A stretch of 64,000 nt of DNA from Candidatus Nomurabacteria bacterium (GCA_026395995.1 JAPLXQ010000010.1:2587-66586); one strand, 5' to 3'; numbered from the stretch's first letter, positions 33,458 through 61,739 are shown. Translations and numbers: made by a program. Notes: generated from the sequence alone by a model not told the origin.

Positions 33458-34294
33458 ATGAAAAAAAAGATATCAGTCTTATATTCAAACAAAGACATTT
33501 TGGTCATAAATAAACCAGCGGGGATTTCGGTCCACGGTGACGGTAGGAGCGATGTGGAAACTTTAGCAGATTTGATATTGGCGGAATATCCAGAGATGAA
33601 AGACGTAGGTGAACCGATGGAAATAGATATCGGTGGTGGTGAGAAGAAAATTATATATCGTCCTGGAATAGTACACAGACTCGACAAAGATACGAGTGGA
33701 GTTCTTATCTTGGCTCGCAATCAAAAAGCTTATGAATATTTAAAAGAGCAATTTCAAAATAGGGAAGTGAAGAAAACTTATAATACTCTCGTCTATGGAA
33801 ATATGAAAAATGATTTTGGTATTGTGGATGCTGGTATCGGACGTAGTCCGAGTGATCCTAGAAAGAGAATTGCTTCACGTGGTAAGACTGGCAAGATTCG
33901 TGACGCAGTAACTGAATATAAAGTTTTGAAAAGAATTTCAGTCGGGAAAAGGTCGGACCTTAAGAATTCAAAAAGGTCCGACCTTGAGGGGACTGGAATT
34001 CAAGCACCTCACCCCAGCCCTCTCCTTAGCGAAGGAGAGGGAGAAGAAAAATTCACTTGGCTCGAAGTTAAACCAAAAACAGGACGCACACACCAGATCC
34101 GCGTGCATATGAAATTCCTAAATCATCCTGTCGTAGCGGACCAATTATATACTCCAAAGGACGCCACAACACCTTTTGGCATCTCCCGCCTAGCACTTCA
34201 TGCTTCATCTATTGAATTTAAAAACCTCAAAGGGGAAACCATCAAAATAGAAGCCCCACTACCGGAAGATTTGGAAAAAATACTTGAAAAATAA
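33458..34294 (+). CDS. RluA-family 23S rRNA/tRNA pseudouridine synthase with in-frame palindromic-repeat insertions
   Basis: HRLDKDTSGVLILARN catalytic motif; insertion at 33947-34044 encoding VGKRSDLKNSKRSDLEGTGIQAPHPSPLLSEGEGEE. Confidence 0.8.
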   Translation: MKKKISVLYSNKDILVINKPAGISVHGDGRSDVETLADLILAEYPEMKDVGEPMEIDIGGGEKKIIYRPGIVHRLDKDTSGVLILARNQKAYEYLKEQFQNREVKKTYNTLVYGNMKNDFGIVDAGIGRSPSDPRKRIASRGKTGKIRDAVTEYKVLKRISVGKRSDLKNSKRSDLEGTGIQAPHPSPLLSEGEGEEKFTWLEVKPKTGRTHQIRVHMKFLNHPVVADQLYTPKDATTPFGISRLALHASSIEFKNLKGETIKIEAPLPEDLEKILEK

Positions 34295-34454
34295 CACCTA
34301 AAACAGGTCTTATTTTACCGGCAATATCTACTTGACTTTTGTGTCTATTTTATGCTATAATATACTCAGCTTTATAAAATAAGTTACATATAGGGATATA
34401 TGGAATGGGGAGCAGCATTCTGCCAAAATAGTTCATTTATAATTTTATATACAT

Positions 34455-36344
34455 ATGTTGTTTTTATTTCTTGCTTTAGTAACAGCACTTATTGGTGCTT
34501 CGCCTTTTCTTGTTTCAAAAGATTTTGGTTCATTTATTGTCGCTGCAATTATTTATTTAATAGTTGGGTGGCTCGCTTATTATTTCTTCCCTCCTTGTCT
34601 GGAGTACGGACTTTTTGATGGTGTGTTTGGAGTAACTTTTGTTTTTTCAATTATCTCTACTGTTATTACAATGAGTATGGATAGTGACAATAGTTTTTCT
34701 TTAACAATTCCAATAGTTGGTCTTATTGTTTTAATTTTTGCTTGTTTATCTAGCTGTGGTTCTTGTAATACTACAAGATATGCCGCACTTGTAGGTAATA
34801 TTAGTAAAGAAGGTAAAACTTTAAAACATTGGACTCAGCAAAATCAGGAGATCTCACCTTCACACATTCGTATTGTTCCTAAAGAACATGCTTTGTCTAT
34901 TGCTAAAACTTCACTTAATCAAAATTCTGATGGTAGTGGAAATTTAGTCGGAAGTCAGTTTACCTTATCTGAAAAACTTATTACGTTACAGAAAGTTGAT
35001 AGTGAAATGTATTATGTTATTCCTCTTGATTTTAAAAATTGGGGAGTTTGGAATAATGTTACTACTGGAGTCCCAGGTTTTGTAATAGTAGATGCTGAAG
35101 ATCAACATGCAACGCCTAGGTATATTGATGGGCATTCTATGAAATTTACTCCAGGAGCTTGTTTTAGTCAAAATCTTGAGCGATATCTTTATTCGGAAAA
35201 AGGTTACTCAAATAAAATTTTGACTGACTACTCTTTTGAGTTAAATGATTCTTTAAAACCGTATTGGGTTATAAGTGTTTGCCATCATACAATCGGCACT
35301 GATGGAGGTATTGTTGTTGATGGTGTGGTAATTGTGGATCCAGAAAATGGAGAAACAAATTATTATGATAAAAACAAAGCACCTAGTTGGGTTGATCGAA
35401 TAATTCCAGAACAGATTATTAATAATAATCTAAAATACTGGGGAACTTACTCTAGTGGTTTCTGGAATAATACTTCTTGGGGTACTCAAGCTAATTTAAG
35501 AGAGCCTGAGTCAACTCTTTTGAATTATGGTAGTGATGGAACTTGTTGGTATGTAACTCCAATGACTTCGACTTCTGGTGAAGACCATACTATGACTGAT
35601 TTAATTTATACTAATTCTCGTACAGGTGAATCTCATCGTTACTGTGTGTCTGGTTCTACTGAAGAAAAAATAACAGCTACTGTTGATGCTACTGTTAAGT
35701 TTCAGAATTTACATGCTGCAGCAATTGTATTTGAAAATGTTTCAGATAAATTAACAGCATTGGTTCCAATATTAGCTGAAGATCATTCTATTAGAGGATT
35801 GGCTTTAGTTGATGTTGCTACAAAAAGTTTAGCGTGGGATCCTGATCCTGCAAATGCTTTGATGAAATATCAAAACAGTTTAGGATCAATCGCTTCTGCT
35901 ATTGGTACTGATATAGCAACTAATCAAGAGGATTATGTTGGAGTTATAGGTCGTATAAATGAAGGATTTACAACTTCTGGAAGTTTATATTATCTTTACT
36001 TTAATAAAAGTAGCCATATTTATGTGGTTCCACAATCTTATCGTGAAGTTCTTATTAGTCAGCCTGGAGATTCAGTAAGGATTAAGTTTCTTGATTCTCC
36101 TTCAGATCTTATTTCTGTAAATTATTTTGATAACCTGAGCTTAAATATAAAAGCTTCAAAAAATCAAAGCGATGTAATTAATAGAACAAATAAGAAAAGA
36201 GCAGATGAACGTTTGGATGCTTCAAGAAAGTCAGTAAAGGGAACCATTAATAATGGAGATATTTCTAATGAAGTTCTTGATTCAATTGCTCGAGATTTAG
36301 GTAAACAGAAAAATTCTGAAAAACCTAAAAAGAGTAAAAAATAA
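34455..36344 (+). CDS. Hypothetical membrane-anchored extracellular protein (N-terminal TM helices, Lys-rich C-terminus)
   Basis: ORF track. Confidence 0.35.
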   Translation: MLFLFLALVTALIGASPFLVSKDFGSFIVAAIIYLIVGWLAYYFFPPCLEYGLFDGVFGVTFVFSIISTVITMSMDSDNSFSLTIPIVGLIVLIFACLSSCGSCNTTRYAALVGNISKEGKTLKHWTQQNQEISPSHIRIVPKEHALSIAKTSLNQNSDGSGNLVGSQFTLSEKLITLQKVDSEMYYVIPLDFKNWGVWNNVTTGVPGFVIVDAEDQHATPRYIDGHSMKFTPGACFSQNLERYLYSEKGYSNKILTDYSFELNDSLKPYWVISVCHHTIGTDGGIVVDGVVIVDPENGETNYYDKNKAPSWVDRIIPEQIINNNLKYWGTYSSGFWNNTSWGTQANLREPESTLLNYGSDGTCWYVTPMTSTSGEDHTMTDLIYTNSRTGESHRYCVSGSTEEKITATVDATVKFQNLHAAAIVFENVSDKLTALVPILAEDHSIRGLALVDVATKSLAWDPDPANALMKYQNSLGSIASAIGTDIATNQEDYVGVIGRINEGFTTSGSLYYLYFNKSSHIYVVPQSYREVLISQPGDSVRIKFLDSPSDLISVNYFDNLSLNIKASKNQSDVINRTNKKRADERLDASRKSVKGTINNGDISNEVLDSIARDLGKQKNSEKPKKSKK

Positions 36345-36370
36345 ACTGCGACCAGTCAGATACTGGAAAT

Positions 36371-36405
36371 CCCCACTTTTTAATTAAAGTGGGGATTTTT
36401 GTTTT
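36371..36405 (+). terminator. Rho-independent terminator
   Basis: aaatccccactttttaattaaagtggggatttttgtttt. Confidence 0.55.
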
Positions 36406-36448
36406 AATAATTGCAAAATCTAATGCTTTGTGTTAGATTATATGAACT

Positions 36449-36874
36449 ATGACAGTAACAAATATAAAACTTAGTCCAGTAGATATGGATGCCCGAAAAA
36501 AGCTTGATTTTAAAGCCGGGGATACTATTCGCGTGTGGTCAAAGATTCCAGACGAAAAAGCTACAAAAAAGGGAGATGCACAAAAATTCCGCTCTCAGGC
36601 TTTTGAAGGAATCGTATTAGCTCGTAAACACGGCACAGAAATCGGAGGTACTTTTACAGTTCGTAAAGTAGCTAGTAGTGTCGGAGTAGAAAGAATTTTC
36701 CCAATTTTTTCTCCAATGATCGACAAAGTAGAAATCATCAAGAAAGCAAATGCCGGACGCAGTAAGCTCTACTATGTACGTACAAAAGCGGTCAAAGATG
36801 TTCGCCGAAAACTCCGTTCAGTAGCAATGTCCGCAGAACACGAAATGGAACCAGAAGTAAAAGAAGAAAAATAA
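36449..36874 (+). CDS. rplS: 50S ribosomal protein L19
   Basis: FEGIVLARKHGTEIGGTFTVRKVASSVGVERIFPIFSPMIDKVEI matches L19 core. Confidence 0.85.
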   Translation: MTVTNIKLSPVDMDARKKLDFKAGDTIRVWSKIPDEKATKKGDAQKFRSQAFEGIVLARKHGTEIGGTFTVRKVASSVGVERIFPIFSPMIDKVEIIKKANAGRSKLYYVRTKAVKDVRRKLRSVAMSAEHEMEPEVKEEK

Positions 36875-36964
36875 TTTTAAATATAAAAAGAAAACCCACT
36901 CAATAAAAATTTGGTGGGTTTTCTTTTTAGTTAAATATGCTAGTATCAAATATATAAGATATTT

Positions 36965-37046
36965 GCACGAGTGGCGGAACTGGTATACGCGTACGATTGA
37001 GGTTCGTATGGAGCAATCCTTGGAGGTTCAAGTCCTCTCTCGTGCA
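36965..37046 (+). tRNA. tRNA-Leu (anticodon GAG), type II
   Basis: Acceptor GCACGAG/CTCGTGC, anticodon stem-loop TACGA TTGAGGT TCGTA, variable arm, T-loop TTCAAGT. Confidence 0.75.
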
Positions 37047-37056
37047 CAACAAATAT

Positions 37057-37602
37057 ATGATTTTTCTTTATATTGTAATTTTGATTCTGTTTCTTTTTAT
37101 TTTATTTCTTTTTACTTCTTTTTTGACCCCGCTTTTTTCCAAGGTACCTTTTGTACCAGTGAGGGGGAGAATCGTAGATGAAATAATTGCAGCATTAGAA
37201 TTGAAAGACGATAGTGTTCTTTATGATCTTGGTTGTGGGGATGGTAGAGTGCTTTTTGCTGGAGTAAAAGATTTTCCAAATAGGAGCGCGCTCGGTATCG
37301 AGCGCGCTCCATTCCCATACCTTTGTGCAAAAATTAGAAAAGTCTTTTCTAAGACAAAAAATGTTTCTATTGTTTACGGTGATTTTTTTAAATTAGATTT
37401 TTCTCCGGCGACCCATATTTTTATTTATCTTTTTCCTAGTATTCTCGATGAGCTTTTACCAAGATTCGAAAAAGAATTAAAACAGGGGACTAGATTAGTG
37501 TCTTGCGATTTTCAATTTTCAAAAAGAAAACCAGATGAAGTAATAAAAACAAAATCAAAAGACTGGCAAACAAATCACACTATCTACGTTTATTACTTTT
37601 AA
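37057..37602 (+). CDS. Class I SAM-dependent methyltransferase with N-terminal TM anchor
   Basis: Motif I LYDLGCGDGRVL; start chosen downstream of tRNA-Leu. Confidence 0.6.
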   Translation: MIFLYIVILILFLFILFLFTSFLTPLFSKVPFVPVRGRIVDEIIAALELKDDSVLYDLGCGDGRVLFAGVKDFPNRSALGIERAPFPYLCAKIRKVFSKTKNVSIVYGDFFKLDFSPATHIFIYLFPSILDELLPRFEKELKQGTRLVSCDFQFSKRKPDEVIKTKSKDWQTNHTIYVYYF

Positions 37603-37680
37603 TTTTTTTTTAAAAAACTTTAACTTTTTCTAAAAATCTGTTATAACTATATAGCTAACCCAAATAGGGAATAGTTACAT

Positions 37681-37753
37681 GGAGGCATTGGTGTAGCGGT
37701 AACACTACAGCTTGTGGAGCTGTCATCGAGGGTTCGACCCCCTCATGCCTCCC
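37681..37753 (+). tRNA. tRNA-His (anticodon GTG) with encoded G-1
   Basis: 8-bp acceptor GGAGGCAT/ATGCCTCC, anticodon stem-loop ACAGC TTGTGGA GCTGT, T-arm GAGGGTTCGACCCCCTC, discriminator C. Confidence 0.8.
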
Positions 37754-37798
37754 ATTAATTTCAAAAATCCCCTTATTTTGCTATAATGGGAGTATATT

Positions 37799-40700
37799 AT
37801 GTTTGGAAAATTTTCAAAATTTCGTTTTTTAACCCAAAGCCTAATTGTAGTTTTAATCATAGCTACAGGGTTTTCTTTTTTTTTAAATAATGCACATTCT
37901 TATACTGGATTAATTTACGTATCTAATATTAATTCTAGCTCATTCTCATCACCTGTAGGTATTGCAAAAGATTCATCTGGAAATATTTACGTAATTGATA
38001 AAGTTGATAATACTGTTAAAAAATTCGATTCAAATGAAAATTTATTAACATCATGGGGTGGTACAGGTACAACAGAAAATAAACTTAATTTTCCTGTAAG
38101 TATTACTGTTGACCCATCAGGTCATGTATATGTTTTAGAACTTACAAATTCTCGCATCCAAGAATTTGAATCAGATGGAACTTTTATAAAAATGTTTGGC
38201 TGGGGTGTCCAAGATGGTACAAACACTTTTCAAGTTTGTACTTCAGGCTGCCAGGCTGGAGTTATGAGTATAGGTAATTTTTATTTTAGTTCATATAGTG
38301 GTATTGCGGCAGATTCCTCGGGTAATATTTATATTACTGAGTATGGTTATAATCGTGTTTCAGAATTCGACTCAAACGGAATTTTCGTAAAAACATTCGG
38401 CTGGGGTGTTTTGACAGGAGGTGCTTCTTTTGAAACATGTTTTTCTAGTTGTTTGAGTGGTGTCTCTGGTCATGGTGTTGGTCAATTTAACAATCCTACT
38501 GGTATGGCTATTGATTCTTTGAATCATATTTATATTTCAGATGGTGCGAATTCTAATGGACGCATCCAAGAATTTGAATCAGATGGAACTTTTATAAAAA
38601 TGTTTGGCTGGGGTGTCCAAGATGGTACAAACACTTTTCAAGTTTGTACTTCAGGCTGCCAGGCTGGGATATTGGGTTATGGAAATGGCCAATTTTATTG
38701 GCCACAAGCTATTGGTATTGATAGTAGTAATAATGTGTATGTCACAGATATAAATGTGAGAGATATTCAAGAATTCGATTCAAATGGAAACTTTATTATA
38801 AAAGTCGGACAGGGTGGTGGAACTCCAGGGACAATACCAAACCCAATGGGTTTAATCATAAATACAGCTGGTTATATTTATGAAGCAGATTATTATTTCC
38901 CAGCTGTTCAAAAATTTAAAATAGATGCCATCCCAGTAATTTCTAGTCTTAGTCTAAATACAATACCAGCAGGAAGTCCTGATACAACTATCGATATTTT
39001 AGGAGAAGATTTTAATGTAGCATCTATAGTTCGTTTTAATGGAATTGATCATACTCCTACATTTATAGGTAGTGATCATTTGCAAGTAGATTTTTTATCA
39101 GCATCTGATTTTAATATAGCTGGTAATTATCCAGTTACTGTTTTTAATTCATCACCAGATATCTCTTCAGCTTCTTCTGTTTTTAATGTTAGTGATAATC
39201 CTACTGTTACTATTGTACCTTCGGCTGTTTTTTCTAATAGAAATATTACTGATAACATTGTTCATGTTGTAGGTACCATAACACCAATATTACCGAGCCA
39301 GGTTTCAATTCATGGTGATACTACTGCTGGTGCTACAAATTTGCGCTGCACTCAAATAGATACTTTTTCGGTTGATTGTCTTGTGGACGTTACTTCAAGT
39401 GGACTTCTTTATGTAAGTGCAACAAATGGAATAAATACGACAAAAAGTTCGGCAGCTTCTTTTTCTATTGACCCACTGTTCCAAATTGAGATAAGCCCAT
39501 TATCAATGTCTTCAGCAAATATGATACCTGTAACCATTCATGTGACAGATGATAACACTATCGATGTTGGAAATGTATACGATGGTGGTATTACCGCAGG
39601 CTATTCTGATTTTTTGTGTACCCAATTTGACCCTAATACTGTTAATTGTGATTTAAACATTACTTCAAGTGGTGATTTAATTATTTCTGCTGATGATAAT
39701 GTTGGTAATAGTGTGACCAGTCAAACAATTACTTATATTATTGGTCCTCCAATAATTAATGTGACATTGCATACACTAGCTTCTCATAGCACAATTTCTG
39801 ATACGACTATTCATATTACAGATGATAATGCTATTGATTTTGGTAATATTACGGTGAGTGGTTTGTCGACTGCAAATACTTCAAATTTAAATTGTGTTCA
39901 AACTGATTCTAAAACAGTTGATTGTTCTATTAAAATTACTTCGAGTGGAACTTTAATAATTCATGCAATTGATAATGCTGGGAATATTGCTAATAGTGAT
40001 GCAGTTACTTATTCTATAACACCACCACCTCATGGTGGTTGTATTAACAACTGTAATCCTACACCAAACCCCTGCCTAGCAAACCCAGCCCTACCACAAT
40101 GTCCAAATCATTGTCTCTTTAACCCCACATTATCAGATTGTCATGTAGTAGATCCTTGTACTTTAAACCCATCACTCTGTATTGTTCCACCACCAATCAA
40201 AACATGTGCAAACACTCCATCAATGTGTCCTCCACCTCCACCACCACATAATCCACCACCAAACGGAAGTCCTTCAAATACAACAACAGTCACACCACCA
40301 ACAAAACCAACAGTAACTCCACCAATACCAATACAAACACCAAAGCCTACTCCAATATCTCCAATCAAAACATTTCTAAAAACAGTCGCAGCTAAAATCA
40401 TATTAGTCACAGTCGCTTCTACAGCCTTAGCTACCACCATGGCTTCTACTCCAATGTCCATGTGGCGTTCAATGCTCTCATTCCTCGCTGTACGTAAACG
40501 AAAACCATGGGGAGTAGTATATGACTCAATTACAAAACAACCACTCGATCCAGCATATGTAGTCCTTCAAGATATTAATGGTACTGAAATCAACACAGCC
40601 ATCACAGACCTAGACGGTAGATATGGCTTCTTCTTAAATCCTGGAATGTACAAACTGATTGCCAACAAAACAAACTACATCTTCCCATCAGCTAAACTAC

Positions 40701-41281
40701 AAGGTAAGTTCTCCGATGAACTATATGACAACCTATACTTCGGAGATACAATCAACATATTAAAAGCAGGAGATGTCTTAGCAAAGAACATACCAATGGA
40801 TCCAATGAATTTTGACTGGAATGAGTATGCCAAGAAACAGCAAAACCTTTTACACTTCTACCAAAAGAGAGATATCCTCTTAAACAAAGTATCTTCCGCT
40901 CTTTTCTACTTTGGTTTCATTCTTTCTTCGTATGCCATCTTAAACATTGTAGACAAATTAAATATTGTAATCTTCGCTTTGTACATTTTAATCTTCTTCT
41001 TCCGAACAACATTACTAAAACCAAAACAAGAAGGTACTGTCACAGACAGAGATGGTTCACCACTGGCATTTGCCATTGTTCGTATTTTCTCTGCTAGTAC
41101 TCACACTGAAATGCTACACAAGACTACAAATGCTCTTGGTAAATATTATTGTCTTATTTCTAATGGTCATTATTATGTGAAGATTGAGAAACACAATCCA
41201 GATGATACATATACACCTGTATATACATCAGGGGAGTTTGAGGTGAGGGAGGGGGTGGTGAATGGGGAGTTTAGTATATAA
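37799..41281 (+). CDS. Very large surface protein: N-terminal NHL-repeat beta-propeller, Ig-like repeats, Pro/Thr-rich linker, TM segments, C-terminal CarboxypepD_reg/Cna-B-like domain
   Basis: NHL-type repeats (SGNIYVIDKVDNTVKKFD), exact ~108-bp internal duplication, PPPPPHNPPP linker. Confidence 0.6.
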   Translation: MFGKFSKFRFLTQSLIVVLIIATGFSFFLNNAHSYTGLIYVSNINSSSFSSPVGIAKDSSGNIYVIDKVDNTVKKFDSNENLLTSWGGTGTTENKLNFPVSITVDPSGHVYVLELTNSRIQEFESDGTFIKMFGWGVQDGTNTFQVCTSGCQAGVMSIGNFYFSSYSGIAADSSGNIYITEYGYNRVSEFDSNGIFVKTFGWGVLTGGASFETCFSSCLSGVSGHGVGQFNNPTGMAIDSLNHIYISDGANSNGRIQEFESDGTFIKMFGWGVQDGTNTFQVCTSGCQAGILGYGNGQFYWPQAIGIDSSNNVYVTDINVRDIQEFDSNGNFIIKVGQGGGTPGTIPNPMGLIINTAGYIYEADYYFPAVQKFKIDAIPVISSLSLNTIPAGSPDTTIDILGEDFNVASIVRFNGIDHTPTFIGSDHLQVDFLSASDFNIAGNYPVTVFNSSPDISSASSVFNVSDNPTVTIVPSAVFSNRNITDNIVHVVGTITPILPSQVSIHGDTTAGATNLRCTQIDTFSVDCLVDVTSSGLLYVSATNGINTTKSSAASFSIDPLFQIEISPLSMSSANMIPVTIHVTDDNTIDVGNVYDGGITAGYSDFLCTQFDPNTVNCDLNITSSGDLIISADDNVGNSVTSQTITYIIGPPIINVTLHTLASHSTISDTTIHITDDNAIDFGNITVSGLSTANTSNLNCVQTDSKTVDCSIKITSSGTLIIHAIDNAGNIANSDAVTYSITPPPHGGCINNCNPTPNPCLANPALPQCPNHCLFNPTLSDCHVVDPCTLNPSLCIVPPPIKTCANTPSMCPPPPPPHNPPPNGSPSNTTTVTPPTKPTVTPPIPIQTPKPTPISPIKTFLKTVAAKIILVTVASTALATTMASTPMSMWRSMLSFLAVRKRKPWGVVYDSITKQPLDPAYVVLQDINGTEINTAITDLDGRYGFFLNPGMYKLIANKTNYIFPSAKLQGKFSDELYDNLYFGDTINILKAGDVLAKNIPMDPMNFDWNEYAKKQQNLLHFYQKRDILLNKVSSALFYFGFILSSYAILNIVDKLNIVIFALYILIFFFRTTLLKPKQEGTVTDRDGSPLAFAIVRIFSASTHTEMLHKTTNALGKYYCLISNGHYYVKIEKHNPDDTYTPVYTSGEFEVREGVVNGEFSI

Positions 41282-53104: not shown

Positions 53105-53168
53105 ATTTGACACTATTGTTATAGGTAGTATTATTAGCTTATTACTCAATTAAATAATATAAAAACAT

Positions 53169-53552: not shown

Positions 53553-54725
53553 ATGAAAGATACACAAATAAAAAAATTAATAACAGCAGAAGGTAAAAGA
53601 CAGAAAAGTGTTATTAATTTAATCGCCTCAGAAAATTATGTTTCCAAAGATGTTTTAGCGGCTCTCGGTTCAGTCCTTACAAATAAATATGCAGAAGGGT
53701 ATCCAGGACGAAGATATTATGGAGGAAATGAAATTATTGATAAAGTAGAAACTCTAGCTATCGATCGTGCGTTAAAACTTTTTAAATTAAAACCAGACGC
53801 ATGGCATGTGAATGTTCAGCTCCTTTCTGGAAGTCCTGCGAATTTTGCATTGTATTCTGCTCTCGTACCTATCGGTGGAAAAATAATGGGAATGAAATTA
53901 ACTTCTGGTGGACATCTCACACACGGACATCCACTTTCTATGACAGGTAAACTTTGGAAACCGATTCAATTCGAACTCGACCCAAAAACAGAAGTCATCG
54001 ATTATGATGCAATTGAAAAATTAGCAATACAAGAAAAGCCAGATATTATCGTCGCTGGTTTTACCGCATATCCACGCGTTGTTGATTTTAAAAAGTTTAG
54101 ATCTATCGCTGACAAATGCGGAGCATTATTACATATCGATATGTCTCACTTTGCAGGACTTGTCGCAGGGGGAGTGTATCCATCTCCATTTCCATATGCA
54201 GACAGTGTGATGACTACTACTCACAAATCTCTCCGTGGTCCGAGACAAGCAATTCTTTTTGTAAAAAAAGATGAACGTGGTTTTGATAAAAAATTAGATA
54301 AGATGGTAATACCTGGACTCTTTGGTGGTCCACATGAAAACAATATTGCCGGAGTTGCGATAGCACTCAAAGAAGCTGACACTCCAGCCTTTAAAAAATA
54401 CGCAAAACAAGTTATTAAAAATGCGCAAACATTAGCAAAAGAATTACAACGTTTAGGCTGGAAAATAGTTTCTGGTGGCACTGATTCACACTTGATATTG
54501 ATGGATACTTTTTCTTCAAATGGTGTTACAGGTAGTGATGCTAGTAAAAAGCTTGAAAAAGCAGGGATAATAGTAAATATGAATACTGTTCCAGGGGACA
54601 CACGTTCTGTTATGGATCCATCTGGTATTCGCCTAGGTACTTGTGCAGAAACAACAATAGGTAAAAAAGAAAAAGATATGATTAAAATAGCACAGAAGAT
54701 GGATAAAGTATTAAGAGGTAAATAA
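53553..54725 (+). CDS. glyA: Serine hydroxymethyltransferase
   Basis: NLIASENYVSKDVLAALGSVLTNKYAEGYPGRRYYGGNE. Confidence 0.9.
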   Translation: MKDTQIKKLITAEGKRQKSVINLIASENYVSKDVLAALGSVLTNKYAEGYPGRRYYGGNEIIDKVETLAIDRALKLFKLKPDAWHVNVQLLSGSPANFALYSALVPIGGKIMGMKLTSGGHLTHGHPLSMTGKLWKPIQFELDPKTEVIDYDAIEKLAIQEKPDIIVAGFTAYPRVVDFKKFRSIADKCGALLHIDMSHFAGLVAGGVYPSPFPYADSVMTTTHKSLRGPRQAILFVKKDERGFDKKLDKMVIPGLFGGPHENNIAGVAIALKEADTPAFKKYAKQVIKNAQTLAKELQRLGWKIVSGGTDSHLILMDTFSSNGVTGSDASKKLEKAGIIVNMNTVPGDTRSVMDPSGIRLGTCAETTIGKKEKDMIKIAQKMDKVLRGK

Positions 54726-54728
54726 TTT

Positions 54729-55139
54729 ATGAAGATATTTATCTGCACAAGTAAACATTTATATAATCAGATTCCTCCTATAAAAGAATCTCTTGAAAAA
54801 AGTGGTCACATTATAACTTTACCAAATAGTCTTGATAATCCTTTGAAAGAGCAAGAAATGAAAACAGTAGGAACAGCAGAACATTCAAAATGGAAAGGAG
54901 AGATGCTTCGACTTCAAAAAGAAAAAGTTAACATGAATGATGCAATTTTAGTTTTAAATTTTGAAAAGAACGGACAGGCGAATTATATTGGAGGAGCTAC
55001 ATTTTTAGAAATTTACATGGCTTTTGAATTAGGTAAAAAGATATTTTTGTATAATCCAATTCCAGAAAGCTTTTTAAAAGATGAATTGCTGGGGATGAAC
55101 CCTTTTATTATTAATGGTGATTTAAGTTTAATAAAATAA
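54729..55139 (+). CDS. Possible nucleoside 2-deoxyribosyltransferase-like (flavodoxin-fold) protein
   Basis: MKIFICTS start, size and context; weak. Confidence 0.3.
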   Translation: MKIFICTSKHLYNQIPPIKESLEKSGHIITLPNSLDNPLKEQEMKTVGTAEHSKWKGEMLRLQKEKVNMNDAILVLNFEKNGQANYIGGATFLEIYMAFELGKKIFLYNPIPESFLKDELLGMNPFIINGDLSLIK

Positions 55140-55143
55140 TTTT

Positions 55144-55833
55144 ATGAAAAAAGGAAAATTAATTGTAATAGACGGTACGGACGGAAGTGGAAAGGCGACA
55201 CAGGTAGAATTACTTCGTTTACGTTTAGTAAAAGAAGGCTATAAAGTAAAGACTGTAGATTTCCCGGAATACTATAAAAATTTCTTCGGCAACTTTATTG
55301 GTCACTGTTTGAGTGAGCAATATTTTAATTTTGTGAAAGTTCATCCTAAAATAGCTTCTGTCTTATATGCAGCCGATCGTTGGGAATCATCTGATCAAAT
55401 TGATGGGTGGTTGAAATCTGGGTGCATAGTTATTGCCAATAGATATGTTTCAGCTAATCAAATTCACCAGGGTGGAAAAATAACAAATGCTAAAAAAAGA
55501 AAAGACTTTTTACGTTGGCTGGATGATATGGAATATAGGGTTTTCGGTATACCGAGACCAGATGTAGTAATTTATTTGGAGGTTCCAATCAAGGTTACCC
55601 AAAAATTAATGATTGAACGTGATGCAAAAAACGCTAGACAGTATTTAAAGAAAAAGGGAGATGTTCACGAAAATGACCCAGTCTTTTTGGAAAATTCACG
55701 TAAGAGTGCATTGAAACTTATCAAAGAATTAAATAACTTTATAAAAATTTCTTGCGTAAAAGGTTTTAATATGAGAGCTAGAGAAGATATTCATGAAGAT
55801 GTATATTTAGAAATTAAAAAAGTTTTAAAATAA
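55144..55833 (+). CDS. Thymidylate kinase-like (d)NMP kinase
   Basis: P-loop LIVIDGTDGSGKATQ, DRY-like ANRYVSANQIHQG. Confidence 0.6.
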   Translation: MKKGKLIVIDGTDGSGKATQVELLRLRLVKEGYKVKTVDFPEYYKNFFGNFIGHCLSEQYFNFVKVHPKIASVLYAADRWESSDQIDGWLKSGCIVIANRYVSANQIHQGGKITNAKKRKDFLRWLDDMEYRVFGIPRPDVVIYLEVPIKVTQKLMIERDAKNARQYLKKKGDVHENDPVFLENSRKSALKLIKELNNFIKISCVKGFNMRAREDIHEDVYLEIKKVLK

Positions 55834-55834
55834 T

Positions 55835-56245
55835 ATGAAAATATATTTTGCAGGATCAATACGAGGAGGAAGAGATGACAAAGATATTTATGCTGATATT
55901 ATTTCTTTACTGAAAAAATATGGCCCAGTACTGAGTGAACATATAGGCGACAAAAATCTTTCAAGTCAAGGTCAAACGTCAATGACGAATGAACAAATTT
56001 ATCAGAAAGATGTTAATTGGATTAATGAATCTGATATTATCATTGCTGAAGTTACAAACCCATCACTTGGTGTTGGTTATGAATTAGGCCTTGCTGAATC
56101 TCTTAAAAAGAAAATTATTGCCTTATACAGAGTAGTAGACGGTAAAAGGCTTTCCGCAATGGTAGCAGGAAATAGTAATATTACTTGTATAGAATATACC
56201 GAAGTTTCTGAATTAGATAAAATATTTGAAGAAATTTTTAAATAA
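55835..56245 (+). CDS. 2'-deoxynucleoside 5'-phosphate N-hydrolase (DNPH1/Rcl) / nucleoside 2-deoxyribosyltransferase family
   Basis: MKIYFAGSIRGGR N-terminus characteristic of DNPH1; ...EVTNPSLGVGYELGLAE. Confidence 0.65.
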   Translation: MKIYFAGSIRGGRDDKDIYADIISLLKKYGPVLSEHIGDKNLSSQGQTSMTNEQIYQKDVNWINESDIIIAEVTNPSLGVGYELGLAESLKKKIIALYRVVDGKRLSAMVAGNSNITCIEYTEVSELDKIFEEIFK

Positions 56246-56254
56246 TATTTATCG

Positions 56255-56285
56255 CTTAAAAAGCCCGAGTTATCTCGGGTTTTTA
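56255..56285 (+). terminator. Rho-independent terminator
   Basis: aaaagcccgagttatctcgggttttt. Confidence 0.6.
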
Positions 56286-56299
56286 TTTTTCTTATAATT

Positions 56300-56737
56300 A
56301 TGTACAATGAAAACATGCAGTTTAAGATCAAAAAATTGAAAGAAGGTGCGAAATTACCTAGTTATGCAAACCCGGGGGATGTGGGTATGGATTTGTATTC
56401 TATGGAAAATGTTACTTTGGCTCCTATGGAACATACTATTTTAAATCATGGTTTTGCTTTAGAATTCCCTGAAGGATACGGAGGTTTTGTTATGGACAAG
56501 GGAAGTATTTCAAAAGCAGGGCTCAAAGTTATGGGTGGGGTATATGATGCAGGGTATAGAGGCGAATACAATACACATCTGGTTAATTTGTCTGATAAAT
56601 CATATACTATCGAAGTAGGAGATAAAGTTTCTCAACTAGTCATCACTCCTGTCGTAATAGGCGAGATAGAGGAGGTGAATGAACTTTCAGAATCTGTTCG
56701 CGGAGAGGGTAGATATGGTTCAACTGGTAGAAAATAA
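56300..56737 (+). CDS. dut: dUTP diphosphatase
   Basis: dUTPase motifs PGDVGMDL, GGFVMDKGSISK, RGEGRYGSTG. Confidence 0.85.
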   Translation: MYNENMQFKIKKLKEGAKLPSYANPGDVGMDLYSMENVTLAPMEHTILNHGFALEFPEGYGGFVMDKGSISKAGLKVMGGVYDAGYRGEYNTHLVNLSDKSYTIEVGDKVSQLVITPVVIGEIEEVNELSESVRGEGRYGSTGRK

Positions 56738-56800
56738 GATCTCACCCCCAACCCCTCTCCTTATAAAGGAGAGGGGCGCCGGGATGGAATACACAATATA

Positions 56801-58552
56801 ATGAAACAAAAAATAATAAATTTAATAAAAGATGCTTTGAATAAACTCGAAATAGGTGAGGTGAATTTTGTCGTGGAACATCCAGAAGATTTCAAGAATG
56901 GAGACTATTCTACGAACGTAGCGATGGTTTGTGCGAAGCAATTGAAAATGAATCCACGTGAACTTGCAGAAAAAATTTCTGCAGAAATTATGAAGCACCC
57001 CCTCCGGCTTTCAGTCACCTCCCCCTTAGCTAAGGGGGAGGGCTGGGGTGGGGGTGTTGAAAAAATAGAAGTCGCCGGCGCAGGGTTTATAAATTTCTAT
57101 ATTTCAAAAGAATATTTTCAAAAAGAATTAGCAAATATAATAACTTTAGCTGATAAATACGGATCCTCAGATTTAAATAAAGGAAAGAAAATTTTAGTTG
57201 AACATTCTAGTCCGAATTTATTTAAGCCATTTCACGTCGGGCATATGATGAATAATGCTATCGGTGAATCTATTACTCGACTCGCACATTTTTCTGGTGC
57301 GGAAGTAAAAGCTATTTCTTTCCCGTCTGATATTTCTCTCGGAGTAGCTAAAGCAATTTTTATAATTTTAGAAAAACAAATTGATGGTGAGGTTTTTAAA
57401 CCAGTAGATATCGTTGCATTAGGTGATGCTTATGTAGAAGGCACGAAGAGATATGATGAAGATGAATCTATCCATGCTCGTGTAAAAGAAATTGCTGATA
57501 ATCTATACTCTGAAAAAGACTCTCCAGAATTCAGCGCTTTTGTCGCTTGTAAAGAATTCAATATGGAATATTTTAAAAATATTACAAAACGTCTCGGTTC
57601 AGAATTTGATGGATATATTTACGAGAGTGAGGCTGGTATCATAGGTAAAAAAATGGTTTTAGAAAATACTCCTGCTATTTTTACCGAGAGTGAAGGCGCC
57701 GTCGTTTATATTCCAGAAGAAACAAAAAAATACATCAATACTGCCGTGTTTATAAACAGTCAAGGCAATCCTACTTATGAAGCGAAAGACCTCGGCCTTC
57801 TCGATTTAAAATTTGAAAAATATAATCCAGACCTTTCTATTTTTATTACAGACCATCAACAGATTTCTCATTTCGCTGTCGTTCTCGATGCTGTAGAAAA
57901 AATAAATAAAAGCTGGGTAGAGAGAAGTGTTCACCGAACACATGGACGTATGACATTCAAAGGACAAAAAATGTCTTCACGTCTCGGGGGAGTTCCACTC
58001 GTTGCTGATATTTTAGAGACAGTCCTTGCTGAAGTTTCTGAACGTACAAAAGACAGAGATACAGTAGACACACGTGAGAATCCAGAAGCTATCGCTGTCG
58101 GCGCACTAAAGTTCGCTATTCTCCGTGCTCAAGCAGGGAAAAATATCGACTTTGATCCAGATACTTCACTTTCATTCGAAGGGGATTCAGGTCCGTATTT
58201 ACAATACACTGGTGTCCGTGCAAATTCTGTACTAGCGAAGGCACCCCTCCTCAATCCTCCCCTTGGCAAATGGGAGGAAGGACTCAATAATTTAGAAATC
58301 ACCGATGTAGAAAAAATACTTGCTCGTTTTCCGGAAGTCGTCGAAAATTCTATCACTAATTGGGCTCCACATTATGTCACGACATATTTATGTGAATTAG
58401 CGCAATCATTCAACAGCTGGTATGCACATACTCAAATTATCGATGAAGCTAATCCAAATATGAATTACAATTTAGCTATCACTAAATCAGTTGCTCAAGT
58501 AATGCAAAACGGCCTTTGGCTTCTCGGCATTGAACTTCCAGAGAGAATGTAA
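56801..58552 (+). CDS. argS: Arginine--tRNA ligase with in-frame GC-rich insertion(s)
   Basis: HSSPNLFKPFHVGHMMN (HIGH), DALR anticodon-binding C-terminus; insertion 56997-57056. Confidence 0.9.
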   Translation: MKQKIINLIKDALNKLEIGEVNFVVEHPEDFKNGDYSTNVAMVCAKQLKMNPRELAEKISAEIMKHPLRLSVTSPLAKGEGWGGGVEKIEVAGAGFINFYISKEYFQKELANIITLADKYGSSDLNKGKKILVEHSSPNLFKPFHVGHMMNNAIGESITRLAHFSGAEVKAISFPSDISLGVAKAIFIILEKQIDGEVFKPVDIVALGDAYVEGTKRYDEDESIHARVKEIADNLYSEKDSPEFSAFVACKEFNMEYFKNITKRLGSEFDGYIYESEAGIIGKKMVLENTPAIFTESEGAVVYIPEETKKYINTAVFINSQGNPTYEAKDLGLLDLKFEKYNPDLSIFITDHQQISHFAVVLDAVEKINKSWVERSVHRTHGRMTFKGQKMSSRLGGVPLVADILETVLAEVSERTKDRDTVDTRENPEAIAVGALKFAILRAQAGKNIDFDPDTSLSFEGDSGPYLQYTGVRANSVLAKAPLLNPPLGKWEEGLNNLEITDVEKILARFPEVVENSITNWAPHYVTTYLCELAQSFNSWYAHTQIIDEANPNMNYNLAITKSVAQVMQNGLWLLGIELPERM

Positions 58553-58637
58553 AAATCGTTAGGCAAGACCTAGCGATTTTCAGTTTTCCACCATTACATC
58601 TTGAAAAAGTAAAATCTCAGGATTATAATTTATATTA

Positions 58638-61600
58638 ATGTACTCAATAAAACGGGCGCGTTTGTTGTTTATTTTTATCACTAGCTTTATTAGTGTTTTT
58701 TATTTTTCAGCTCATTGTGCCTTGGCTGGCACGAATGTGACTGATGATATTACTTCCAATACTACGTGGACTGTCGCAGAGAGTCCATATATTGTGAGTA
58801 CGAATTTGTATATTGCCCCCAGTACCATACTCACTATCGAGCCAGGTGTCGTAGTAAAGTTTGAAAATAATTCTAGTATAAATTCCGCCGGTGATATCAT
58901 AGCGAATGGAAATATAAATAATAAAATAACCTTCACTTCTATTTTAGATGATTCAATAGCCGGAGATACAAATGAAGATTCTGATAATACCATTCCAAAT
59001 AAAAATGATTGGGATGGTATTTATTTTAATAGCTCTCATAATTCGTCTTTTACTTATGTGAACTTTAAATATGCTACCGATCTTTTAACTACAGATACTT
59101 CAGACATTAATTTACAAAATATTGATATTTATGAAAGTAATACTGGAATTTATTCTTATGATAATAGTAATATTACAATTACTAATGCTACCGCACAAAA
59201 TATCACCAGTGATGTTTTGTTTGCTTATAATCATACTAATATATTAGTGGACAATATTACTATTCAAGATATAGATGAAGCTGCTGTTGAAATTCTTGAG
59301 GGTAGTAGGCTAACTATTAACAACTCTTCTGTTAAAAATGTTTCACAATATGGAGCTTTTTTTATTTATGGTAATAGTTTTTTGATAGGCGATCATTTAG
59401 ACGTTGAAGATGTTTTTGGTAGTTCTCAGGACACAATAGACGTAGTAAATCATAGTAATTTATTGATTGATCATTCTACTTTTAAAAATTGCCCAGGGGA
59501 TTCGTGTATAGCTTTTTATGATAGTAATAGCTATTTGAATAATCCTTCGAGTGTGAGTGCTTATAATACATTATTCGATACTGGGGCAGGGTCAGCATTT
59601 ATTACTTTTGGAAATAGCCTAGTCACCGCTAATATTCAAAACTGCACGATTAAAAATTTTGATTATTTGGGAATTAGAAATTATGGTCCAGCAGTGCTAA
59701 ATGCTATCAATAATTATTGGGGTGATGCTACTGGGCCATACCATCCAGATTTGAATCCATCTGGGCTCGGTAATGGTGTTTCGAATAATGTCGACTTTAT
59801 TCCTTTTAAGATTACTGATCCACTCATCTCTCATAATCCAGTGATATTGATACCCGGAATTATGGGCTCATATTTAAATAAAAATTTTGGTGACATGGGT
59901 GAATTGTGGCCGAATATTAATACTTTGATAACATCGATTTCTGATGATTTTTTAAATGATCTTGCTTTGCGACCAGATGGCACTGAAGATCCAGCTAAGC
60001 CAATACAAGTAGGAGATATTATTCGTAGTATCAATGTCACTCTGCCTGGAATAAATAGTGTCTCACATAGCTTTGATGGATTGATAAATGAATTGACCAA
60101 TGGTGGCTATGTAGAAAATACTGACTTGTTTGTCTTTCCATATGATTGGCGAAAAGATGATGCGGAGGCAGCGATTTTGCTCGACAGCAAAATCGCTGCC
60201 GTCCTCTCCCAGACCGGCGCCTCCAAAGTAGATATTGTGGCTCACAGTATGGGCGGGCTCGTCACGAAAAAATATATTTCTGATCACGGCGCCGGCCTGA
60301 TAGACAAACTCGTCTTCATTGGCACTCCGCACCTCGGTGCACCGAAAGCTTATAAAGTACTAACTTATGGAGATGATATGGGAATAAATTATTGGAAACT
60401 TAGTTTATTAAGTCCAAGTAGGGCAAAATATATTTCTCAAAATATGCCAGGGGTTTTTGATCTTTTGCCGAGTGAAAAATATATTAATGATAATGGGTCT
60501 TATGTGATAAATGCCAAAAATAATCCTGTGCAGAATTTGAATTATTCTGAGACGAAAGATTTTATGAATACTCAAGGACGGAATATTTCAATGTTTACAC
60601 CAGCTGAAAGTTTGCATAATGATACAGACAATTTAAATTTACTAAATACAGATGTGTACAATTTTGTTGGTTGTGGTAAGACGAAAACGATTGGCAAAAT
60701 ACGAGTGGGGAAGAAGAGAGATTGGACACACCTTGGACTGACATGGAAAGACGATGTAATTATTTCATATACGAATGGTGATGAGACAGTGCCACTGTCT
60801 TCGGCTACTAGTGTCGACGCTCTCAATGAATACTTTGTGAAAAATATTTCACATATGGATTTGCCTTCAGCGGATGGATTGAGGCAAGATGTATTGGCTA
60901 TTCTCACGGGTGCTGATTTACCGAGCTCACCAGTGGTTTTGTCTGATGTGGGTGATTGTACGACTTCTGGGCACACTGTATCTGTCCACAGCCCAGCGAC
61001 ACTCGATATTTATGATAGCTTCGGCAATCATACAGGATTGAATACTGATGGTGACATTGAGTACGGCGTTCCGGGAGTATCTTATGATATTTTTGATGAT
61101 GTGAAATATGCATTTTTACCAGATGGGCAAAATTATCGAATTGTGAACCATGCTACAGATACAGGAGGGTATAGTTTGAATATTGATAATGTGGCAAACA
61201 ATGATGACATTACAAATTCTTTTTCTTGGAATCTTGTACCATTACAGACTTTGAATACAAATACTGAAATAAATATTGGCCCAGATTATCCTGAAAATGA
61301 TTATGTATTAAAGGCCGATGAAGATGGTAATGGAAGCTTTGAGAAAACTTTTCCTTTGAATTTTGATGGCACTAGCCTGGCTGAAAAAACAGAAGAAAAA
61401 CTTCATCATTCTAGTGGTGGTAGTGTTTTATCAATATTAAATAAAAAGGATGATGATAAAAAAGAAAACCTAGAAGAAAAAAATATTTCTGAATTGAATT
61501 CCGAATCCCAAAGGTCGGTCCTTAAGAATTTGGCTGTTAAAGGACCAACCTTAACGAATTCTGTATTTAAAAGGTCGTTCCTTAAAGGAGTTCAAGGTGC

Positions 61601-61739
61601 GACCTTAATACATTTAAACCCTGAGTCTGCATCCCAAACGGCCTCTGCAATAAATTCTGGTTTTAAAATTAAAGATATTTTAATAGTTCTTTCTGTTTGT
61701 ATTTTAGCTTTTATTATTGGCAAAAAATTGGTAAAATAG
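58638..61739 (+). CDS. Large secreted protein: N-terminal right-handed beta-helix region, central alpha/beta-hydrolase (lipase/LCAT-like, AHSMGG), C-terminal repeat-containing segment and TM anchor
   Basis: Signal peptide, GxSxG AHSMGG with PVILIPGIMGS oxyanion region, C-terminal hydrophobic helix. Confidence 0.55.
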   Translation: MYSIKRARLLFIFITSFISVFYFSAHCALAGTNVTDDITSNTTWTVAESPYIVSTNLYIAPSTILTIEPGVVVKFENNSSINSAGDIIANGNINNKITFTSILDDSIAGDTNEDSDNTIPNKNDWDGIYFNSSHNSSFTYVNFKYATDLLTTDTSDINLQNIDIYESNTGIYSYDNSNITITNATAQNITSDVLFAYNHTNILVDNITIQDIDEAAVEILEGSRLTINNSSVKNVSQYGAFFIYGNSFLIGDHLDVEDVFGSSQDTIDVVNHSNLLIDHSTFKNCPGDSCIAFYDSNSYLNNPSSVSAYNTLFDTGAGSAFITFGNSLVTANIQNCTIKNFDYLGIRNYGPAVLNAINNYWGDATGPYHPDLNPSGLGNGVSNNVDFIPFKITDPLISHNPVILIPGIMGSYLNKNFGDMGELWPNINTLITSISDDFLNDLALRPDGTEDPAKPIQVGDIIRSINVTLPGINSVSHSFDGLINELTNGGYVENTDLFVFPYDWRKDDAEAAILLDSKIAAVLSQTGASKVDIVAHSMGGLVTKKYISDHGAGLIDKLVFIGTPHLGAPKAYKVLTYGDDMGINYWKLSLLSPSRAKYISQNMPGVFDLLPSEKYINDNGSYVINAKNNPVQNLNYSETKDFMNTQGRNISMFTPAESLHNDTDNLNLLNTDVYNFVGCGKTKTIGKIRVGKKRDWTHLGLTWKDDVIISYTNGDETVPLSSATSVDALNEYFVKNISHMDLPSADGLRQDVLAILTGADLPSSPVVLSDVGDCTTSGHTVSVHSPATLDIYDSFGNHTGLNTDGDIEYGVPGVSYDIFDDVKYAFLPDGQNYRIVNHATDTGGYSLNIDNVANNDDITNSFSWNLVPLQTLNTNTEINIGPDYPENDYVLKADEDGNGSFEKTFPLNFDGTSLAEKTEEKLHHSSGGSVLSILNKKDDDKKENLEEKNISELNSESQRSVLKNLAVKGPTLTNSVFKRSFLKGVQGATLIHLNPESASQTASAINSGFKIKDILIVLSVCILAFIIGKKLVK

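Follow-up and report, generated by a model that had tools for sequence, protein, structure and literature searches.

Repetitive extragenic palindromes (REPs) are described in the available text of Di Nocera et al. 2013 (PMC3733652) as GTAG- and CGTC-tagged repeats, many of which form head-to-head dimers, and transposase genes flanked by REPs are reported there as well. The same text mentions intragenic REPs, particularly in Opitutus terrae and Rickettsia conorii, over half of these repeats being dimers or grouped repeats that encode 20–30 residues. Rickettsia palindromic elements (RPEs), as presented in the available parts of PMC10969869 and PMC3733652, are palindromic inserts that keep the reading frame of the unrelated housekeeping genes in which they lie, in a reduced genome, and that are translated into additional peptide at places the protein fold can accommodate. 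In this work, we analyzed a palindromic repeat family, hereafter family 2, found in a 64-kb stretch (the window, i.e., the whole stretch of DNA analyzed; AT-rich, approximately 34% G+C) of a metagenome-assembled genome (MAG) of Candidatus Nomurabacteria, where its copies lie within the genes of an RluA-family pseudouridine synthase and a lipase-like protein. We consider it moderately probable that family 2 represents a short mobile element, a DNA hairpin of the REP-dimer kind (REP doublets forming hairpins, REPINs), specific to Patescibacteria (Paceibacteria and their relatives) and moved by a Y1 transposase. In the literature on palindromic repeats of Patescibacteria, Parcubacteria, or the candidate phyla radiation (CPR), no description of these elements was found, the coverage being incomplete and no proof of absence.

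The family-2 unit consists of two 13-nt arms of the form AAGG-N5-CCTT (N5, five variable nucleotides), placed in inverted orientation with an A-rich spacer (consensus AAGAATTCAAA) of some 11 nt between them. Its stem usually extends 5–12 bp further, the unit measuring about 45–60 nt and the doublet hairpin 37–60 nt, and as a single strand the doublet can form either two mini-hairpins or one long hairpin. In the intact doublet of the RluA gene, each of the arms, GGTCGGACC and GGTCCGACC, is the reverse complement of its partner, and together they create a 13-bp stem with an 11-nt loop holding GAATTC; the single-stranded DNA fold of positions 33943–33992 gave −14.3 kcal/mol (z = −5.3). Beyond an internal bubble (GGGAA/GAGGG), the inner stem is followed by a pair of outer arms, the left of which codes for host residues I-S-V and the right of which is without a counterpart in the empty-site ortholog P0008. 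The coordinates of these and other features are collected in Table 1.

The search of the window with the motif AAAGGTCSGACCTT (at most two mismatches) gave 14 strand-matches against 0.54 expected, a number reached by none of 100 shuffles of the window, and a chance origin of the matches was ruled out on this basis. A sequence-only reading of the window had already placed repeats in the RluA and lipase-like open reading frames (ORFs), and its coordinates and translations match ours; its interpretation is supported in part, being right in substance and wrong on the unit. The RluA copies are present, but the unit is no tandem 20-mer, as copies 1 and 2 form an inverted, mutually reverse-complementary doublet; likewise, the four lipase copies are present and degenerate, but they pair as two inverted doublets and are not tandem. 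The palindromic core which it described proved accidental to the RluA copy (GGTCGGACC), the arms of other copies, e.g., GGCAAGACC / GGTCTTGCC, being not self-palindromic yet complementary to one another. Its remark that an element of another family (family 1) adjoins the RluA copies holds, as a GC-rich family-1 hairpin is located at 33994–34041. Two further related hairpins that it did not list (ACAAGGTCGAACCTTGT at 4904 and 5116) lie at the start of a Y1-transposase gene, and the probable connection with the Y1 transposase genes of the window escaped it.

Table 1. Coordinates of family-2 elements, their host genes, and the Y1 transposase genes with their hairpins in the window (positions counted from its first nucleotide).
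Feature	Position	Strand	Sequence, support, or remark
RluA-family pseudouridine synthase (host gene 1), 278 aa, ORF intact	33458..34294	+	Pfam PF00849, E = 1.7e-31
RluA motif copies	33948-33961; 33972-33985	+	AAAGGTCGGACCTT; AAAGGTCCGACCTT; sequence read
Intact family-2 doublet in RluA	33949..33985	+	encodes KRSDLKNSKRSDL
RluA doublet, left arm	33949-33961	+	AAGG-TCGGA-CCTT
RluA doublet, spacer	33962-33972	+	AAGAATTCAAA
RluA doublet, right arm	33973-33985	+	AAGG-TCCGA-CCTT
RluA element, full palindromic extent	33933..34001	+	outer arm GAATTTCAGTC 33933-33943 vs GACTGGAATTC 33991-34001, 10/11 paired
Peptides spanning RluA insert			e.g., GKRSDLK / NSKRSDLEGTGIQ
LCAT/lipase-like protein (host gene 2), 1033 aa	58638..61739	+	PF02450, E = 4.6e-22; PF13229
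Lipase-gene motif copies, four, degenerate	61510, 61539, 61570, 61593	+	near ORF end
Decayed doublet 1, lipase-like gene	61511..61552	+	arms AAGGTCGGTCCTT 61511-61523, AAGGACCAACCTT 61540-61552
Decayed doublet 2, lipase-like gene	61571..61606	+	arms AAGGTCGTTCCTT 61571-61583, AAGGTGCGACCTT 61594-61606
Covariance-model match, RluA doublet	33941-33993		66.4 bits
Covariance-model match, lipase doublet 1	61503-61560		35.2 bits
Covariance-model match, lipase doublet 2	61563-61611		21.4 bits
RAYT-like Y1 (HUH) transposase gene 1, 224 aa	4951..5625	+	Pfam Y1_Tnp (PF01797), 34 bits vs cut-off 23
Gene 1 upstream hairpin	4901..4921	+	TTACAAGG-tcgaa-CCTTGTAA, 30 nt before ATG, z = −5.7
Gene 1 internal hairpin	5115..5131	+	ACAAGG-tcgaa-CCTTGT, +164 nt, encodes RQGRTLL
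RAYT-like Y1 transposase gene 2, 221 aa	21346..22011	+	homology; 43-45% identical to gene 1
Gene 2 bracketing hairpins, identical	21283-21315, 22009-22039	+	CCGCATGAGG-gtagt-CCTCATGCGG, 10-bp stem, AGG-N5-CCT top
Solitary intergenic AGG-N5-CCT hairpin	12385..12407	+	CTAGCAAGG-actgc-CCTTGCTAG, no adjoining transposase gene

Both doublets of the lipase-like gene are located in a low-complexity linker in front of the C-terminal hydrophobic anchor of a protein that is further composed of an N-terminal hydrophobic segment, a beta-helix, and an LCAT/lipase domain. The arms of the first doublet are complementary at 12 of 13 positions and no longer self-palindromic, they carry a compensatory pair of changes (arm 1, A7>T; arm 2, T3>A), and the spacer between them (AAGAATTTGGCTGTTA) retains the AAGAATT start. 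The spacer of the second doublet (AAAGGAGTTC) is similar to the TTRAAGAAGTYCCAAA loop subtype of another MAG, H43-bin105_1, which comes from the Hainich groundwater series (wells H41–H52). DNA folding gave z = −2.3 for the former and z = −4.4 for the latter. The gene reads the arms in two frames, KRSxL and KGPTL, which a protein repeat would not do; the KRSDLKNS-like peptides named by the sequence-only reading are encoded, but not as the sole frame. The lipase copies appear to be old and decaying; a search for orthologs of this protein tail gave just two weak matches, neither of which covers the repeat region. A covariance model built of 61 copies recognized in the window these three doublets only, the other matches being generic hairpins.

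The N5 of the arms varies between copies and stays complementary within them (TCGGA/TCCGA, TCAGA/TCTGA, CAAGA/TCTTG, ACAGA/TCTGT, TGAAA/TTTCA, ACCGT/ACGGT), and AAGG and CCTT are nearly invariant. For a set of 61 distinct copies anchored on the spacer alone, inter-arm pairing was found in 83.3% of cells vs. 65.5% in column shuffles (a level reached by 0 of 500), the covariation score was 0.471 vs. 0.157 after shuffling (slid-partner controls, at most 0.171), and double-sided changes were present in 15 of the 19 pairs. When 62 copies were compared, the 19-nt core was seen to be flanked on either side by within-copy complementarity over about 21 nt, with a purine-rich bubble at positions 10–14; at positions 15–17, it amounted to 73–76% within copies vs. 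26% between them. Outside the bubble, G:T and A:C mismatches were counted 19 vs. 16 times, with no strand-of-function signal.

In H43-bin105_1, similarity between copies mostly ends 0–3 nt beyond AGG...CCT, while small subfamilies share 8–12 nt of the outer arm, and one subfamily with a fixed arm mismatch (TCCGA/TCGTA) recurs in seven copies, of which six have the main spacer. The fixed-mismatch subfamily and the shared outer arms point to the derivation of family-2 copies from master copies. Direct target duplications were not noticed at family-2 copies, the ends of which are not sharp, and no systematic test for them was made. It is also worth adding that in four loci (L048, L049, L060, and L063) the usual GGGAAAAGG / CCTTGAGG-type flanks run reverse-complemented with respect to the spacer, as would be seen if the latter had become inverted between the inverted arms, and in L048 this arrangement yields KRPDLFEFLRSGLEE in place of ...KNSKR...

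To describe the distribution of the family, one genome per species (185,579 species) was scanned with CCTTAAGAATTCAAAAAGG, i.e., the spacer with two flanking bases per side and free arms; the exact-spacer query was counted as 19 nt. This resulted in 60 loci, of which 55 possess arms and originate from 24 Patescibacteria MAGs (host labels: Nomurabacteria, Paceibacterota, Minisyncoccia, and two labelled Saccharibacteria). Confinement of the motif to the two loci of the window, which the sequence-only reading had named as a sign against a repeat family, was thus not found. The five remaining loci (Bacteroidales, Desulfatiglans, an archaeon, Pedobacter, and Proteus) lack arms and for this reason are regarded as chance matches, about four of which would be expected by a rough estimate. 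The copy number differs approximately tenfold between genomes, from 3 per 64 kb in the window to about 45 per 100 kb in H43-bin105_1, the latter value coming from a relaxed definition applied to the 100 kb retrieved; 23 exact-spacer copies are distributed on 19 contigs of this MAG, and its loop subtypes include TTGGGAATTCAAAAA, TTAAGGGATCCCAAA, and TTGAAGAAGTTCCAAA, the last of which the second lipase doublet resembles. No spacer match was found in the viral contigs of IMG/VR, and phage-borne spread was dropped as an explanation on that account.

Among the 62 exact-spacer copies, 30 are genic and in sense orientation, 2 are genic and antisense, and 30 are intergenic or placed at ORF or contig edges, i.e., 32 lie within long ORFs. 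The genic sense copies are read in two frames, 23 in the KRSDLKNSKRSDL frame (KRSDLKNSKR) and 7 in the KGQTLRIQKGLTL frame (KGQTLRIQKG). Two of the three sense frames of the consensus are free of stop codons, as is one of the three antisense frames; if insertion were random and interrupted genes were lost afterwards, a sense:antisense ratio of 2:1 would be expected, from which the observed 30:2 deviates (binomial P ~3e-4). This excess can be explained by selection at the protein level, as the sole open antisense frame encodes the hydrophobic LFEFL. Twelve of the 62 copies, all intergenic, have an A-tract 5' of the stem and a T-tract 3' of it and resemble bidirectional terminators.

Occupied and empty sites could be compared in the RluA gene, in which the insert, made of both hairpin families, covers residues ~164–196; the encoded protein is 100% identical to one annotated from a Candidatus Nomurabacteria MAG. 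The AlphaFold model of this protein has a confident core (mean predicted local distance difference test score, pLDDT, 82.5; predicted template modelling score, pTM, 0.80), and residues 166–193, at the tip of a beta-hairpin between strands 151–163 and 196–206, have pLDDT below 50; the insert is predicted to be disordered and to sit at a tolerant position. The closest orthologs, about 80% identical by BLAST and 90% identical in the multiple alignment with the insert set aside, have a loop of 8 residues vs. 40 residues in the window. With YKVLKR and TGRTHQ as its borders, the loop could be delimited in 108 of 120 orthologs: 63 have a baseline loop of at most 9 residues, and 45 (42%) carry some insert, i.e., family 2 (6), another, longer hairpin family of SKNFSSCALPRVRGGTLGDKNFHK type (22), GC-rich family-1-like elements (10), or other inserts (7). 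Among the 23 orthologs that rank closer than the distant family-2 carriers (P0002–P0024), 20 have a plain loop of 7–8 residues, two carry a different hairpin family, one was not delimited, and none has family 2; the family-2 element, absent from the closest orthologs, was gained in the RluA lineage of the window.

Family-2 elements do occur at the same loop in more distant orthologs (P0025, P0028, P0030, P0039, and P0108), which are 54–59% identical to the RluA of the window (BLAST) and in which the elements lie a few codons apart within the loop. The sequence-only reading would have taken such presence in distant homologs (formally so in P0025, P0028, P0030, and P0039) as a sign of a conserved protein repeat. 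Its view of a DNA-level palindromic family placed in-frame in genes nevertheless stands, because there is no family 2 among the closer orthologs P0002–P0024, because the same loop is occupied in other lineages by at least three unrelated hairpin families, and because the element of the window is identical to that of L003 at 37 of 37 consecutive bases (GGGAAAAGGTCGGACCTTAAGAATTCAAAAAGGTCCG), whereas the RluA proteins are 59% identical and the genes otherwise saturated with changes; the two reading frames and the approximately half of copies that are intergenic elsewhere agree with it. One of these families is the longer one mentioned above, with SKNFSSCALPRVRGGTLGDKNFHK-like peptides, which occupies this beta-hairpin tip in L146 (P0002) and in 21 further RluA orthologs. 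Separately, the native-length 'empty' loop of the closest ortholog, P0003 (L001, 2685–3416), was observed to hold a perfect 14-nt palindrome, ACTGATGCATCAGT, for which chance, a scar, and a palindrome-prone site are possible explanations.

A similar picture emerges from cysteine desulfurase, the baseline orthologs of which have 375–385 aa and the inserts of which are also placed in loops, as in RluA. Family-2 sites are located near residues 97 (P0170, P0173), 165 (P0177, P0178), and 204 (P0198) in scattered lineages. Three family-2 doublets and a solo arm are present in the cysteine desulfurase of H43-bin105_1 (L010, 425–1834), which is about 85 residues above the baseline; its nearest relative is 60% identical, and the insertion boundaries are approximate.

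The candidate for the mobilizing enzyme is a Y1 (HUH) transposase resembling REP-associated tyrosine transposases (RAYTs), for which the window has two genes. The HUH motif of gene 1 is NHFHIL and its Tyr region YFNKKYNRTGTLFQGKF, and the core of its upstream hairpin (AAGGTCGAACCTT) agrees with the RluA arm in 12 of 13 bases (TCGAA vs. TCGGA). The other hairpin of this gene is internal and lengthens it by one residue at most in comparison with the paralog, and none is found downstream. The hairpins bracketing gene 2 are in direct orientation and have no further copy in the window. At 4916–4944, a promoter-like arrangement was also observed (TTGTAA, 17 nt, TG-TATCAT), the −35 hexamer of which falls within the gene 1 upstream hairpin, in its 3' arm; it is a consensus match only, in a region no richer in such sites than shuffles.

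A metagenome scan with the Y1 gene of the window gave 80 homologous loci, which were tested for an AGG-N5-CCT hairpin (perfect stem of at least 6 bp) within 120 nt upstream or 150 nt downstream. On the upstream side, such a hairpin was present in 50 of 75 loci, and on the downstream side in 52 of 73, where ~1.5% would be expected (background of 0.097 per kb in the same loci), and the loop had exactly five bases in 115 of 117 cases. The flanking hairpins form inverted pairs in 19 loci, direct pairs in 13, and unclear ones in 10, and in nine loci the same hairpin is repeated 0.25–2.4 kb away. Moreover, inverted doublets flank several transposase genes (L101, L106, L118, and L144), the L101 flank TTACAAGGTTCGACCTTG-tatc-CAAGGTCGAACCTTGTAA being the hairpin type of the window itself, and the N5 sets CAAGA, TCGAA, TTAAA, and TCCGA are common to family-2 arms and transposase hairpins. 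Besides the window, 11 of the 80 loci (L065, L072, L074, L083, L091, L099, L101, L122, L138, L140, and L143) have a cognate hairpin within the transposase gene, at +144 to +170 nt (codons ~50–57), and between loci this internal copy changes in step with the flanking ones; a role in autoregulation or as an internal element end is possible. Judged by sequence, each family-2 arm bears the signature of what is taken as the cognate hairpin of this Y1 clade.

By analogy to REP/REPIN-RAYT and IS200/IS605 systems, the Y1 transposase would recognize the hairpin folded in single-stranded DNA, cleave it, and join it to another site, and the doublet would be a non-autonomous element moved or copied by this enzyme. 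In gene-dense genomes many landings would fall into coding sequences, and those retained would be the ones with a length being a multiple of three, a stop-free frame, and a tolerant surface loop or linker as the place of insertion. Whereas the anatomy, the covariation, the taxonomic spread, the in-frame position within genes, the absence from the closest orthologs, and the association of this hairpin type with transposase genes were observed directly, catalysis by the Y1 transposase, the single-stranded intermediate, and the selective filter are inferred. The similarity of the enzyme to solved structures is marginal (a PDB sequence search gave ISDra2 TnpA only, E = 0.2), and the predicted model obtained from the two paralogs of the window is poor (pLDDT 53).

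Several observations weigh against this explanation. As for the enzyme, the sole NCBIfam match of the window transposases is REP_Tyr_transpos (NF047646), with 34.7 (gene 1) and 39.8 bits vs. a cut-off of 80, and the tags of known REPs are not enriched: GTAG and CTAC were found near transposase-locus hairpins in 9 of 147 cases each (~4% expected), CGTC is likewise unenriched, and GTAG or CTAC was found near 2 of 62 family-2 copies (~16% expected, in a wider window). As for its pairing with the repeats, the cognate match within the window is imperfect (TCGAA in the transposase hairpin vs. TCGGA/TCCGA in RluA), the N5 of the transposase-flanking hairpin differs from that of the doublet on the same contig in L054, L070, and L088, only two transposase homologs were present in ~400 kb of element-bearing loci, and the sole transposase seen in the copy-rich H43-bin105_1 carries an unrelated hairpin. 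The mismatch of hairpins does not exclude a link with the transposase, since genomes can hold several paralogs. Furthermore, no presence/absence polymorphism was found between near-identical strains, and the spacer is conserved across genomes more than the arms, which is the opposite of usual REPINs, though the spacer-anchored scan biases this comparison. Finally, the outer stems are mostly copy-specific yet complementary, which simple cut-and-paste does not explain, and in two RluA genes (that of the window and L013) the outer stem appears to have been copied from the host flank.

The copy-specific outer stems and the two RluA cases favor the main alternative, spread without the Y1 transposase, as in Rickettsia palindromic elements, for which no enzyme is known; we regard this alternative as possible but on the whole improbable. 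In a copy-choice route, a nascent strand would switch to a hairpin elsewhere, copy it, fold back and copy its own flank, and return to the template. Complementarity extending ~21 nt to each side and copy-specific at positions 15–17 would be produced in this way, as would a right outer arm that inverts the left flank and is absent from the empty site: in the window, the two pair at 10 of 11 positions, and in L013, around position 5420, at 11 of 11 (GAGAAAAAGTC vs. GACTTTTTCTC), the right arm inverting the host or a pre-existing left sequence. The failure of the cognate hairpin match on three contigs fits this route, and the presence of at least three hairpin families at one RluA loop would be expected if a quasi-palindromic site promoted template switching, in line with which the empty loop of L001 has its perfect palindrome. 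The likeness of family-2 arms to transposase hairpins would then reflect common descent or shared sequence bias only. However, the invariant AAGG...CCTT with exactly five nucleotides between them, conserved in the same form at transposase hairpins, is hard to obtain without sequence-specific recognition, the sharing of outer arms within subfamilies would be expected if the whole unit was copied, and no direct evidence of template switching was obtained.

A broader proposal, which we find doubtful, is that of a lineage-wide hairpin system of Patescibacteria that differs in kind from REP/RAYT and combines a divergent Y1 clade whose genes bear their own hairpin upstream, inside the coding sequence, and downstream, doublets that preferentially enter or persist in genes in sense orientation, and flank-copying growth. 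The conserved spacer together with the 30:2 sense bias could indicate elements acting in mRNA. If such a system existed, it would steadily supply the essential proteins of minimal genomes with new surface loops, as in the 42% of RluA orthologs with an insert.

A functional hairpin selected by the host, i.e., a terminator, a site of mRNA stability or processing, a protein-binding site, or a DNA-uptake signal, is unlikely. The 12 terminator-like copies, the sense bias (P ~3e-4), and the conservation of the spacer over 24 MAGs would suit such a role, but the elements are sporadic among orthologs (6 of 108 RluA loops), their number ranges from 3 per 64 kb to about 45 per 100 kb, and both lipase copies are decaying. 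A DNA-uptake signal should, moreover, be dense in every genome using one, mismatches outside the bubble show no strand asymmetry (19 vs. 16), and the LFEFL peptide of the antisense frame can account for the sense bias by itself. Rfam 15 gave no family at gathering score at 33940–34000 or 61500–61615, and a known structured RNA family was dropped from consideration. That KRSDLKNS is a conserved protein repeat or short linear motif of RluA and the lipase-like protein is hardly credible: the same peptide does occur at the same RluA loop in P0025, P0028, P0030, P0039, and P0108, but it is missing from the closest orthologs, recurs in proteins that are not related to one another (RluA, cysteine desulfurase, and many others), is part of an insert predicted to be disordered, and has identical DNA where the host protein is 59% identical, and this possibility was rejected given the two reading frames (even within the lipase gene), the intergenic half of copies, and the absence from close orthologs.

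If the transposase-based explanation is true, Patescibacteria, whose ultra-small genomes have almost no intergenic space, tolerate active hairpin repeats inside genes, and many unexplained short inserts in their proteins would have arisen at the DNA level, so that alignments, phylogenies, and structure predictions could be made with these inserts recognized and masked. The REP/REPIN-RAYT idea, as set out in the available text of PMC3733652, would be extended to Patescibacteria, with AAGG-N5-CCTT as the recognition signature, and a compact, testable enzyme-and-substrate pair would be at hand. The loops of essential enzymes would, in addition, constitute a natural experiment on selfish DNA making new peptides.

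Other palindromic and structured sequences were observed in the window. GC-rich islands are located at 1906–1951, 2722–2778, 6064–6109 (RuvA, 5632..6204, minus strand), 6232–6274, 14483–14542, 33994–34041 (RluA), 41229–41271, 56737–56796, 56991–57063, and 58227–58268 (arginyl-tRNA synthetase), with clear family-1 hairpins in those starting at 6064, 33994, 56737, and 56991; several of the islands are translated in-frame as PLSxxGEG-like peptides within housekeeping genes. A perfect 48-nt palindrome (24-nt arms with no spacer) at 25178–25225 ends 2 nt into a tRNA gene (25224–25295, minus strand), the ORF 22062..22652 contains, at 22280–22323, a perfect inverted repeat of 21 nt with 2 nt between its halves, and the minus strand at 30307–30425 has an Rfam match to LOOT RNA (RF03000; 88 bits vs. 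a gathering score of 46.4).

Compared with the known systems, family 2 is closest to REP/REPIN-RAYT, with which it shares short palindromes (here with 13-nt arms) in many copies of widely varying number, inverted dimers forming a larger hairpin, and a Y1 HUH gene bracketed by the same hairpin type, inverted in 19 loci vs. direct in 13. The dispersed repeats match the transposase hairpins as simple hairpins in nine loci and as doublets at 12 of 13 positions in the window, and are mismatched in L054, L070, and L088. In contrast to REPs, family 2 has neither a GTAG nor a CGTC tag, its conserved feature being AAGG-N5-CCTT inside the stem; its spacer is strongly conserved across genomes; its hosts, the Patescibacteria, are not among the phyla named in the available text of PMC3733652; and about half of its copies (32 of 62) are intragenic, whereas REPs are usually extragenic and the intragenic ones a small minority. 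Its candidate transposase, unlike described RAYTs, belongs to a divergent clade (35–40 bits vs. the NCBIfam cut-off of 80), many genes of which contain their own hairpin.

RPEs resemble family 2 in the in-frame location within intact protein genes at structurally tolerant positions, but they are elements of Rickettsia of ~100–150 bp, or CGTC-tagged short units, without an associated transposase, whereas family 2, of ~45–60 nt and from Patescibacteria, has a candidate one; the two are set apart here by description. IS200/IS605 elements, the non-autonomous derivatives of which are the palindrome-associated transposable elements (PATEs), share the Y1 HUH transposase, and recognition of subterminal hairpins in single-stranded DNA is an IS200/IS605 feature; nevertheless, IS200/IS605 ends are distinct on the left and right, whereas here hairpins of the same sequence flank both sides, often inverted, and PATEs are gene-deleted copies with two different ends, whereas here the dispersed units are single hairpins or doublets. 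[quoted passage not shown] The principle itself is already known from intragenic REP dimers and Rickettsia RPEs; what is new is the phylum, the signature, the scale at which coding sequences are occupied, and the architecture of the transposase genes.

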